This document shows positions 3,111 through 7,166 of a stretch of 64,000 nucleotides of DNA, piece by piece (within the stretch, counting starts at the first letter, position 1; every line of letters begins with the position of its first letter). Where the stretch lies: the NCBI RefSeq assembly GCF_044647545.1, contig NZ_CP172818.1, one strand, 5' to 3'. Below the pieces are notes generated by a model that worked only from the letters and a program-made list of their open reading frames with translations, had not been told where the DNA came from and did no database searches. The stretch comes from Escherichia coli (GTDB lineage Bacteria > Pseudomonadota > Gammaproteobacteria > Enterobacterales > Enterobacteriaceae). The position numbers and the translations under genes were made by a program.

Positions 3111-5124
3111 GGTCTGCCTGATGTTTGTGGAATCGAGGGGCATAGTATACCTGAAGCAGGGTGGGGATGTTTTACGAAAGTTGTCGCGATGTTGACAAGA
3201 AGAGAATGAATGAGAGGCCAGGACATCTTTGTAATAGAAATAGCAATAATTTCATATTCACTGAAAATATTTTTAATTTTTATTTATAGTCATGGATTAT
3301 TGTTTTTGGGGATTTGGTTGCGTTATCAAAAACGGAATGATTTAAAGTTCATTGGTTATTGATAGATTATTTGTCTGGTTTGTGTGTTTGATATTTTAAA
3401 TGCATATGCTTTAAAAATGGAAATCCTGTTAACTTGTTGAAACATTAAGCCTTTATCAATTTTTTCTTTGTGTGTTCCTCCGTGCTTTATATATGTCCGT
3501 AACCGGACTTCGGGGAAAGAATAATTGAACCATTCCTCAATAACGCCGCATAATCGTTAGCGCGAAACATAATATGTTTTCTATGCATTGATAATTGATG
3601 GATCAACTTATTACGTCCCTGAGGAGGGATGACAAATGCACTCCTGGAAAAAGAAACTTGTAGTATCACAATTAGCATTGGCTTGCACTCTGGCTATCAC
3701 CTCTCAGGCTAATGCAGCGACCTACTGATACCTGGACTTATATCGATAATCCCGTTACAGCACTTGATTGGGATCATATGGATAAGGCAGGCACTGTAGA
3801 TGGCAACTATGTAAACTATAGTGGTTTTGTCTATTACAACAACACCAATGGTGATTTCGATCAGTCCTTTAACGGCGATACCGTTAACGGCACGATCTCA
3901 ACCTATTATTTGAACCATGATTATGCAGACAGTACTGCTAATCAGCTTGATATCAGTAATTCAGTGATTCACGGTTCGATTACTTCTATGCTGCCTGGCG
4001 GTTATTATGATCGTTTTGATGCAGATGGTAATAATCTGGGTGGATATGATTTTTACACTGATGCGGTTGTTGATACACACTGGCGTGATGGTGATGTTTT
4101 CACTTTGAACATTGCTAACACTACTATTGATGATGATTATGAAGCTCTTTACTTCACTGATTCTTATAAAGATGGTGATGTAACCAAGCACACAAATGAG
4201 ACATTTGATACAAGTGAAGGCGTTGCTGTTAATCTTGATGTAGAAAGTAACATCAATATTTCCAATAACTCCCGCGTTGCAGGTATTGCATTATCTCAAG
4301 GTAATACTTACAACGAAACCTACACTACCGAATCTCATACTTGGGATAACAATATCTCTGTAAAAGATTCCACAGTGACTTCGGGTTCAAATTATATCCT
4401 GGATAGCAATACTTATGGCAAAACTGGTCACTTTGGCAATTCTGATGAACCGAGTGATTATGCTGGCCCGGGTGATGTTGCAATGTCCTTTACTGCTTCA
4501 GGTTCCGACTATGCGATGAAGAACAATGTATTCCTCAGCAATTCAACGCTGATGGGTGATGTTGCCTTTACCAGCACCTGGAATAGTAATTTTGATCCGA
4601 ATGGTCATGATTCCAACGGTGACGGGGTGAAAGATACCAACGGGGGTTGGACTGATGATAGCCTCAACGTTGATGAACTAAATCTCACTCTCGATAACGG
4701 AAGCAAGTGGGTTGGTCAGGCAATTTATAACGTTGCTGAAACGTCAGCAATGTATGATGTTGCTACAAACAGCCTTACTCCTGATGCAACATATGAAAAC
4801 AATGACTGGAAACGTGTTGTTGATGACAAGGTCTTCCAGAGCGGTGTATTTAACGTAGCGTTGAATAACGGTTCTGAATGGGATACTACAGGTCGTTCCA
4901 TCGTTGATACCTTGACAGTTAATAATGGTTCTCAGGTTAATGTTTCGGAATCTAAATTAACTTCAGATACTATCGATTTAACTAACGGTTCTTCGCTGAA
5001 CATTGGTGAAGATGGCTACGTTGATACCGATCATCTGACTATTAACTCCTACAGTACTGTTGCGTTGACCGAATCTACTGGGTGGGGGGCTGATTGATCC
5101 TACCCACGTAATATGGACACAGGC

Positions 5125-5991
5125 CTAAGCGAGGTTCTTGTTTTCAAATTGTTCCGGACTGAGGCCGCCACACCAACTGTGCCGCCGCCACCGATTGTAA
5201 TCACATTCGATATAATTAAACACCGTTGCCCGCATTATTTCCCGGCTGATAAAGTGTTCTCCATGGATACATTCCACTTTCAGCGAATGAAAGAAGCTTT
5301 CCACGCAGGCATTATCGTAGCAGCAACCTTTTGCGCTCATACTTCCACGCAGATTATGCCGCTTCAGTTGCGCCTGATAATCTGCTGAACAGTACTGGCC
5401 TCCACGGTCCGTGTGAACGATAACGTTCCGGGGCCTCTTACGCCGCCACAGCGCCATCTGCAGGGCATCGCAGGCCAGTTGCGCCGTCATGCGTGGCGAC
5501 ATTGACCAGCCAATAACGGCACGTGACCACAGGTCAATGACCACTGCCAGATACAGCCAGCCTTCATCTGTACGTAAGTACGTGATGTCTCCTGCCCACT
5601 TCTGGTTCGGGCCACTGGCGTAAAAATCCTGCTCCAACAGATTTTCTGACACAGGCAGGCCGTGTGCGCGGTAGCTGACCGGGCTGAACTTCCGGGAGGC
5701 CTTTGCCCTCAGTCCCTGACGGCGCAGGCTTGCCGCCACGGTTTTTACGTTAAAGGGGTAACCCTGAGCACGCAGTTCATCCGTCAGGCGTGGGGCACCG
5801 TAACGCTGTTTTGACCGGGTAAAAGCCGCGAGGACAACGCTGTCGCAGTGTTGGCGGAACTGCTGACGCGTGCTTATCCTTGTCCGCCGCTGACACCACG
5901 TATACCAGCCGCTGCGGGCCACCCGGAGCACGCGGCACATTGCTTTGATGCTGAACTCAGCCTGATGTTTTTCAATAAAGACATACTTCAT
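5125..5991 (-). CDS. insF: IS3 transposase OrfB (expressed as OrfAB fusion via -1 frameshift)
   Basis: 288 aa ORF with DDE-type integrase catalytic region; start overlaps orfA stop (ATGA). Confidence 0.9.
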
Positions 5992-6287
5992 TTCAGGCGC
6001 TTCGCGAAGTATGTCGCGGCCTTTTGGAGGATAGCCAGCTCTTCATCCCGTTCTGCCAGCTGGCGTTTGAGACGTGCAATCTCGGTAGACATCTCCAGTT
6101 CACGTTCAGAAGACGTCTGCTGATTTTGCTGTTTACTGCGCCAGTTGTAGAGTTGTGATTCATACAGGCTGAGTTCACGGGCTGCGGCAGTAACACCGAT
6201 GCGTTCAGCAAGCTTCAGGGCTTCACTGCGAAATTCAGGCGAATGCTGTTTACGGGGTTTTTTACTGGTTGATACTGTTTTTGTCAT
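5988..6287 (-). CDS. insE: IS3 transposase OrfA (helix-turn-helix / leucine zipper)
   Basis: ORF 5988..6296; start placed at [10 protein letters not shown] for the 99 aa OrfA I recall; A-AAA-G slippery motif near the 3' end (minus strand, about 6021-6026). Confidence 0.85.
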
Positions 6288-7166
6288 GTGAGTCACCTCT
6301 GACTGAGAGTTTACTCACTTAGCCGCGTGTCCACTATTGCTGGGTAAGATCAGATTACAACCTGTACGCCAATACTATCACCGTAACTAACGGCGGTGTA
6401 TTGGATGTGAACGTTGATCAGTTCGATACTGAAGCTTTCCGTACTGACAAACTGGAACTGACCAGCGGCAACATCGCTGACCATAACGGTAACGTAGTAT
6501 CTGGTGTGTTCAATATCGAAAGCAACCGCTTCGTACTTGATGCCGACCTGACCAACGACCGTACCAACGATACTACCAAGTCAAACTACGGTTATGGTTT
6601 AATCGCAATGAACTCTGATGGTCACCTGACCATTAACGGTAACGGCGATAACGACAACACTGCTTCTATCGAAGCTGGTCAGAACGAAGTTGATAACAAC
6701 GGTGACCATGTTGCAGCTGCAACCGGTAACTACAAAGTTCGTATCGACAACGCTACTGGTGCTGGTTCTATCGCTGACTACAACGGCAACGAGCTGATCT
6801 ACGTTAACGACAAAAACAGCAACGCGACCTTCTCTGCTGCTAACAAAGCTGACCTGGGTGCATACACCTATCAGGCTGAACAGCGCGGTAACACCGTTGT
6901 TCTGCAACAGATGGAGCTGACCGACTACGCTAACATGGCGCTGAGCATCCCGTCTGCGAACACCAATATCTGGAACCTGGAACAAGACACCGTTGGTACT
7001 CGTCTGACCAACTCTCGTCATGGCCTGGCTGATAACGGCGGCGCATGGGTAAGCTACTTCGGTGGTAACTTCAACGGCGACAATGGCACCATCAACTATG
7101 ATCAGGATGTTAACGGCATCATGGTCGGTGTTGATACCAAAATTGACGGTAACAACGCTAAGTGGA

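Follow-up and report, generated by a model that had tools for sequence, protein, structure and literature searches.

An IS3 element in the autotransporter gene yaiT within a mosaic Escherichia coli locus

The insertion in yaiT

The stretch of DNA described here (the window) comprises 64,000 nucleotides of Escherichia coli contig NZ_CP172818.1 (assembly GCF_044647545.1). Between hemB and iprA it carries yaiT, an autotransporter gene that is interrupted by a complete, minus-strand copy of the insertion sequence (IS) IS3. YaiT and its counterpart EhaB have a conserved signal peptide and translocator around a divergent passenger; EhaB is the functional positional orthologue, whilst yaiT has been described as 'a corresponding pseudogene in E. 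coli K-12' (PMC13248724). The element, its target site and the two parts of the gene are arranged as follows, the coordinates being those of the window.

3636..5094, plus strand: 5′ fragment of yaiT, encoding the signal peptide and N-terminal passenger; frameshifted by an extra C at 3725 (aligned to MG1655, MS6198, BS-04 and 1919D62)
3726..6500, no strand: block identical to K-12 MG1655 with 0 differences (yaiT passenger, IS3 and 148 nt beyond), defined from binned identities and base-level junctions
5092..5094, no strand: first GAT of the target-site duplication; uninterrupted alleles have a single GAT
5095..6352, minus strand: complete IS3 element, 1258 bp, with 0/1258 mismatches to IS3B of NC_000913.3
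5095..5133, minus strand: right terminal inverted repeat (IRR), from a repeat search and direct reading
6314..6352, minus strand: left terminal inverted repeat (IRL), orfA-proximal, starting 5′-TGATCTTACCCAGC, from a repeat search and direct reading
6353..6355, no strand: second GAT of the target-site duplication; the MG1655 annotation omits exactly these 3 bp between IS3B and the second yaiT fragment
6356..7822, plus strand: 3′ fragment of yaiT, encoding the remaining passenger, the autochaperone and the β-barrel; in frame with the 5′ fragment after removal of IS3 and one GAT

Identity to a named IS3 was judged against the feature annotated as 'insertion sequence:IS3B' in E. coli K-12 MG1655, from which positions 5095–6352 do not differ at any of the 1258 bases. 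The boundaries were read directly from 4900–6550, where the plus strand gives TGATCCTACC at 5095 and GGGTAAGATCA at 6352; the element opens with TGATCC on this strand and its ends have the form TGATC...GATCA. These ends were also the top inverted repeat in the repeat search, an imperfect pair of 39 nt that is 72% complementary and bounded by TG...CA. Both length and ends are those of the IS3 family (approximately 1.2–1.55 kb, imperfect repeats, 5′-TG...CA-3′), as is the target-site duplication of 3 bp (3–4 bp in the family). Nothing counts against the identification, and it is practically certain that the interval is an intact IS3, indistinguishable from K-12 IS3B, inserted on the minus strand within the passenger-coding part of yaiT. 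The presence of IS3B in yaiT is already known, and is annotated in the K-12 reference NC_000913.3.

A match of three nucleotides between the two flanks would by itself have a chance of 1/64, and the duplication was judged instead by comparison with the empty site. Removal of IS3 together with one GAT predicts a 60-mer that occurs exactly in the three uninterrupted genomes 1919D62, ECOR29 and 90-9281, each with one GAT, and the duplication is therefore real. It could otherwise be proposed that the element was brought in by a rearrangement, or by two IS3 copies recombining, and that the flanking GAT is coincidental. The odds of a three-base match leave room for this, as does the multicopy nature of IS3, copies of at least 99% identity occurring at a median of 3 places per genome across 4075 E. 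coli records. However, excision regenerates the exact ancestral 60-mer of those three genomes, the yaiT flanks are contiguous and the reading frame rejoins; coincidence is refuted by the empty site and retains a negligible probability.

The consequences for the gene can be read from its frames. An open reading frame (ORF) at 3712..5097 ends in a TGA that consists of the first three plus-strand bases of IS3, so that YaiT is cut at codon 486. Excision of 5095–6355 gives a 949-codon ORF from 3712, in which ...TESTGWGAD is joined directly to YNLYANTIT.... The ORF that begins at the ATG at 3636 and encodes the signal peptide (MHSWKKKLVVSQLALACTLAITSQANA) stops after 30 codons, because the extra C at 3725 shifts the frame (+1), and the passenger frame reopens at the ATG at 3712; the full frame of 974 codons is restored only when IS3 with one GAT and C3725 are removed together. 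The 974-aa protein repaired in this way has the layout of a type Va autotransporter, with an N-terminal Sec signal peptide (assigned by eye and by homology to annotated EhaB), a passenger and a C-terminal 12-strand β-barrel: the Autotransporter beta-domain (PF03797) was found at residues 716–953 (E = 1e-46), and AC_1 gave a weak match at 575–659, below the cutoff. As the barrel occupies residues 716–953 and IS3 follows codon 486 of 974, the element lies inside the passenger and not at the boundary between passenger and barrel. The window thus holds no intact, expressible yaiT coding sequence but a pseudogene with two lesions. Indeed, yaiT is doubly dead here, through the IS3 after codon 486 and through the +1 frameshift at C3725 just past the signal peptide.

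The original prediction, made from the letters of the window, had described a complete 1258-bp IS3 on the minus strand, with intact terminal repeats and a GAT duplication, splitting yaiT. Its coordinates for the element and for both GAT copies proved exact, and the alignment to an IS3 reference and the comparison with strains lacking the insertion, which it had itself proposed, both bear it out. It had also suggested removing 5095–6355 in order to see whether the passenger and barrel frames rejoin: this they do, but the gene is not restored, the C3725 lesion lying upstream.

The small ORF ytiB (b4767 in MG1655; MIGINVAIFTNVQRRTVS), of 18 aa, lies intact at 4978–5034 on the minus strand, antisense within yaiT. 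It is situated 61 nt past the right end of IS3 and shares its strand with the transposase genes, and its expression could come from read-through out of IS3. A literature search for E. coli ytiB returned unrelated papers only, and a search for yaiT together with IS3 yielded one paper containing both names, in separate mentions.

Transposase genes, frameshift signal and transposition

The coding and recoding features of the element all lie on its own (minus) strand.

5988..6287, minus strand: orfA (insE), 99 aa, DNA-binding/regulatory; ATG at 6287 and TGA at 5988; Pfam HTH_Tnp_1, E = 5e-10; coordinates match insE2 of MG1655
5125..5991, minus strand: orfB (insF), 288 aa, catalytic, in the −1 frame; Pfam HTH_21, rve and rve_2
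6021..6027, minus strand: predicted programmed −1 frameshift site C-CAA-AAG, with the A-AAA-G core at 6025..6021 and AAG in the orfA frame
5980..6015, minus strand: structured RNA region beginning 5 nt 3′ of the slippery site; stem in the 140-nt minimum free energy fold

The arrangement is that of the IS3 family, in which two ORFs overlap, the first (orfA) encoding a helix-turn-helix protein and the second (orfB) a catalytic protein in the −1 frame. As had been predicted, the two meet in an ATGA overlap, at 5991..5988, where the ATG of orfB shares bases with the TGA of orfA. The catalytic DDE triad was located in OrfB at D135 (WAGDITY), D195 (VHTDRGG) and E231 (NACVESFF), inside the rve match, and its spacing of 60 and 36 residues agrees with the approximately 60 and 35 of the family. 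The A-AAA-G motif, placed by the earlier reading at about 6021–6026, was correct to within one base (AAAAG = 6025..6021). A conceptual −1 slip on AAG gives an OrfAB fusion of 387 aa, which matches the NCBIfam model NF033516 (transpos_IS3) over positions 1–369 of 369 with 392.7 bits (cutoff 160), and the motif and the fusion are those by which family members would make their transposase. In RefSeq the same OrfAB product carries the label 'programmed frameshift' on identical copies in other strains. The prefix given for the IS3 shift site, C_CA(A), is also that found in the window (PMC5009743).

On the 3′ side of the slippery site, GACAUACUUC (6015..6006) and GAAGUAUGUC (5989..5980) pair perfectly over 10 bp to form a stem with the ATGA overlap inside. 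The folding energy of a 61-nt segment is −18.8 kcal/mol (z = −3.63), and none of 200 shuffled sequences (0/200) was equally stable. By analogy with published IS3 work, this RNA structure may act as a stimulator of frameshifting; Sekine, Eisaki and Ohtsubo (J Mol Biol, 1994) reportedly describe the stimulatory structure of IS3 as a pseudoknot.

IS3, IS911, IS2 and IS150 use programmed −1 frameshifting and transpose by a copy-out-paste-in route through a circular intermediate. If the present copy behaves like its relatives, ribosomes translating orfA would slip by −1 at A-AAA-G, at low frequency, to yield the OrfAB transposase, whilst OrfA by itself would be a regulator. OrfAB would cut one strand at one end of the element and join it near the other end, producing a figure-of-eight, which would be resolved to a circular copy with abutted ends; integration of the circle via a staggered 3-bp cut of the target, followed by repair, would leave the GAT duplication. 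The figure-of-eight, the circle and the junction promoter are described for IS3-family elements (IS3, IS911, IS2; e.g. PMC3299598, PMC3219604).

Nothing in the sequence speaks against the copy being competent for transposition, and competence is suggested because its ORFs and ends are intact and because it is identical to IS3 copies at thousands of other sites. The folds of the 61-nt and 140-nt segments pick different and mutually exclusive helices, so alternative hairpins compete. A consensus scan of IS3 for promoters and terminators, which is an insensitive method, found nothing above shuffled expectation and no site in IRL. The flanks of IS3 are K-12-identical too (approximately 1.4 kb on one side and 0.15 kb on the other), and for this reason the sequence offers no evidence that IS3 transposed within this genome's own lineage.

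A mosaic locus and its possible origins

An assignment of the window to MG1655 was rejected, since exact mapping failed and blastn gave 96–97% identity with gaps. K-12 identity had been implicit in the original prediction and does not stand for the window: identity to MG1655 is confined to approximately 3726–6500. Binned identities revealed a mosaic of three parts, in which 1–3722 and 6501–64000 are approximately 100% identical to strain MS6198 (NZ_CP015834.1) and other ST648-type strains, and 3726–6500 is K-12-identical. Outside the latter block, identity to MG1655 is 93–99% in most bins and falls to approximately 74% in two hypervariable patches. At this locus MS6198 has no IS, and its ehaB (1005 aa) is intact; the K-12 block covers precisely that portion of the gene over which the MS6198 and K-12 alleles fail to align. 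At the left junction, positions 3719–3726 read GCGACC-TA-C-TGATACC, in which MS6198 and K-12 markers are interleaved and which is one base longer than either parent; the sequence spanning this junction is GCTAATGCAGCGACCTACTGATACCTGGAC. On the right, only 11 identical bases (6501–6511) lie between the last K-12 marker, at 6500, and the first MS6198 marker, at 6512, and the sequence spanning this junction is AACGTAGTATCTGGTGTGTTCAATATCGAAAGC.

The K-12-type passenger is 98–100% identical in MG1655, 1919D62, BS-04, ECOR29 and 90-9281, which are unrelated genomes. It is flanked by the two hypervariable patches, one in the hemB–yaiT intergenic region (3250–3500) and the other a module in the middle of the passenger (6450–6850). 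In both patches strains form discrete types, with approximately 67–75% identity between types, and the 6450–6850 module exists in at least two of them; this is consistent with modular recombination at the yaiT/ehaB locus.

The closest counterpart to the mosaic is BS-04 (NZ_CP172819.1), the only complete genome with the module composition of the window. It shares the insertion site, the K-12-type passenger::IS3 and the switch to an EhaB-type 3′ module from approximately 6496, and it carries a +1 base, an A, at the very position of the extra C3725 of the window. Unlike the window, it has a different backbone, 3 single-nucleotide polymorphisms (SNPs) in IS3, a right IS junction that reads GATCA-A-GATAAC, and a 2-nt deletion at approximately 6496. 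The frameshifted ORF of BS-04 is a singleton in public assemblies, and some of its peculiarities may be sequencing errors.

When both junctions and the whole 9 kb were compared with 5426 complete E. coli genomes, no genome with the mosaic of the window was found. Exact-protein look-ups of three allele-specific fragments in public assemblies had none on record, the controls being positive (a K-12 fragment was found in 5798 blocks, and the BS-04 fragment was found, in BS-04 only), and the junction strings had no match in genome and metagenome contig collections.

With regard to the wider window, the statement that IS3 is its only mobile element is upheld by annotation and by scans. In the equivalent interval of MG1655, IS3B is the sole mobile_genetic_element feature; the Prokaryotic Genome Annotation Pipeline (PGAP) annotation of the collinear MS6198 region contains no transposase, integrase or phage gene; blastn and tblastn of the window with IS3 and OrfAB gave no match outside 5095–6352; and searches for Rfam families and tRNA genes found 0 in the window, hence no tRNA-linked island or RNA element.

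A second departure from MS6198 lies between malZ and acpH. Between the stop codons of these two genes (37,623–38,783; core 37670–38720) the window consists of approximately 1.05 kb of poly-A/T sequence with 12% GC and 60% A, in which there are no ORFs and A-runs reach 32, versus a maximum of 8 elsewhere in the window. The malZ–acpH spacer is 4 nt in K-12, and in MS6198 it is a 1.6-kb insert encoding a 481-aa protein. This hypothetical protein (MS6198_RS01975; 37% GC; 31447–32892 of the extracted locus) is carried by MS6198 and relatives and is absent from K-12 and the window. Derivation of the AT-rich block from a degraded copy of the 481-aa gene was considered and rejected, there being no meaningful homology past the first 51 nt. 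The block had no match in the 5426 complete genomes, nor did its most complex string in representative genomes, and as E. coli sequence it looks unnatural.

Smaller differences from MS6198 were also recorded. At the edge of the AT-rich block acpH (minus strand, 38735–38786) has lost its stop codon (MS6198 TTTCAGAGCGCC versus window GGGAGAAGCGCC), and through this loss AcpH is extended by 15 codons. On the malZ side (37622–37664), just ahead of the block, 5 nt are missing directly behind the malZ stop, and four separate single-G deletions fall within a span of 25 nt (…GTA[G]TCACCA[G]CCCT[G]ACACTACGCA[G]CGC…), an odd progressive loss of G. Elsewhere, a 15-nt deletion at 2111–2113 removes the left arm of the tauD–hemB terminator hairpin (ATGCCGGGTT…AACCCGGCAT), and there are a 4-nt deletion after the yajD stop (45393), a 2-nt deletion in the yajO–dxs spacer (52445) and a C>T change in thiI (56626). 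K-12 is without these indels where it aligns across them; at three, the K-12 alignment ends at the indel.

How the K-12 block came to lie in this backbone can be explained in two ways. A K-12-type yaiT::IS3 allele may have been imported naturally, by recombination into an ST648-type chromosome at the conserved signal-peptide and C-terminal parts, from a donor that would have been a BS-04-like hybrid. Such an exchange is in keeping with the clean MS6198/K-12/MS6198 succession, which changes at 3722/3726 and 6500/6501, with a locus that is modular in nature, and with a gene whose conserved ends surround a divergent passenger; in addition, BS-04 has in common with the window its module composition, its IS3 site, the point of its switch to the EhaB type and the position of its extra base. 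On the other hand, the allele is absent from every collection searched, the interval available for the right crossover is just 11 nt, the left junction mixes the markers of both parents within 6 nt, which is atypical of a single RecA crossover, the +1 allele of BS-04 is a singleton, and the window contains clearly abnormal sequence elsewhere. Natural import is consequently judged possible but on the unlikely side.

Alternatively, the K-12 block may be non-biological, either as a chimeric assembly (e.g. K-12 contamination merged at the conserved flanks) or as edited or computer-generated sequence, the commonly sequenced K-12 passenger having replaced the hypervariable ehaB passenger. That the block spans exactly the part of the gene which fails to align between MS6198 and K-12 points this way, as does the absence of any difference from MG1655, IS3 included, whereas IS3 has 3 differing sites in BS-04 and 1 in 90-9281. 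The extra base and interleaved markers of the left junction are of the same tendency, and the 1.05-kb block of 12% GC replaces an accessory gene, erases the acpH stop and follows the four single-G deletions; the remaining differences from MS6198 are mostly small intergenic deletions, unique to the window and not seen in K-12, and nothing matching the mosaic was present in the public data searched. The position of the +1 base and the near-identical right-hand switch are, however, common to BS-04 and hard to obtain by accident, and over 57 kb the remaining coding sequences are undamaged and contain a single synonymous-type SNP, as would be expected of a genuine close relative of MS6198. For an artefactual origin the case is evenly poised. 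The proposal that an IS-disrupted adhesin cassette (K-12-type passenger plus IS3) moved by homologous recombination at the conserved ehaB ends into an unrelated ST648 chromosome, of the extraintestinal pathogenic E. coli (ExPEC) type, is unlikely.

Neither a natural nor an artefactual origin of the K-12 block changes what the IS3 feature is. As a finding it is of little weight, given that IS3B in yaiT is a textbook K-12 feature and that the structure, frameshift and 3-bp duplication of IS3 are long established. If the cassette proposal were true, IS3 would have spread, and an intact adhesin would have become a pseudogene, by allelic exchange and not by transposition, and the 90-9281-type IS3 insertion (see below) together with 5′ frameshifts, including that of BS-04, would point to recurrent adhesin loss. 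A real mosaic would also be a small, clean case in which recombination at a modular autotransporter locus exchanged an adhesin gene for an IS-killed allele. As it stands, the window combines an ST648-type backbone with a K-12-identical patch of 2.8 kb and a 1-kb poly-A/T stretch; it possibly does not reproduce a natural genome faithfully, a caution that extends to whatever else is reported from it.

Comparison with known elements and alleles

As a member of the IS3 family (IS3, IS911, IS2, IS150), the element has the ORFs in 0/−1 phases, A-AAA-G, RNA structure downstream, a DDE (rve) core, TG...CA ends and a 3-bp duplication. No difference from the family was found, and the element is the type element itself.

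In NC_000913.3, yaiT (b4580) is annotated as a pseudogene, join(390251..391708, 392970..394418), with IS3B at 391709..392966 and insE2/insF2 between the two parts. Of the 5426 complete genomes, 369 have the occupied left junction of yaiT::IS3 and 2996 read across the site without interruption. The window resembles K-12 MG1655 in the sequence of the element, its insertion point, orientation and GAT duplication, and in the yaiT flanks over 3726–6500; it differs in being of MS6198 type up to 3722 and from 6501, and in the extra C at 3725. Whereas K-12 yaiT could be restored by excision of IS3 alone (2907 nt, 968 codons), the yaiT of the window could not.

Other states of the locus were seen in the K-12 lineage. 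In CP034428.1, IS3 is reduced to a 34-aa rve_2 remnant and the yaiT 3′ fragment is gone, a state suggestive of an IS-adjacent deletion; CP057432.1 has a different transposase gene downstream of the first yaiT fragment. In ECOR29 (NZ_CP197071.1) YaiT is intact (968 aa), but the nearby tauA is split by IS3 (201–1458 of its extracted locus).

Strain 90-9281 (O128:H27, NZ_CP024243.1) also carries an IS3 in this gene and in the same orientation (5145–6402 of its extracted locus), which is 99.9% identical to that of the window and flanked by a 3-bp duplication. Unlike that of the window, it is inserted 228 bp upstream (the equivalent of 4866/4867) and its duplication is AAT; because of this separate site with its own duplication, comparison of the sequences marks it as an independent event. 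Insertions of the 90-9281 type are present in roughly 8 complete genomes, a figure that is usable as a rough difference (377 − 369), since with sites only 228 bp apart the junction query confounds the two. This second, independent insertion of IS3 in yaiT may represent recurrent inactivation of the autotransporter.

The host gene itself belongs with the type Va autotransporter adhesins EhaB, YaiT and SeaB; like them it lies at the hemB–iprA locus and combines a Sec signal peptide at the N-terminus with a variable passenger and, at the C-terminus, an Autotransporter beta-domain. Unlike the ehaB of MS6198, it is a pseudogene with two lesions, and its passenger, which has no DNA-level alignment with that of EhaB, is of the YaiT (K-12) type.

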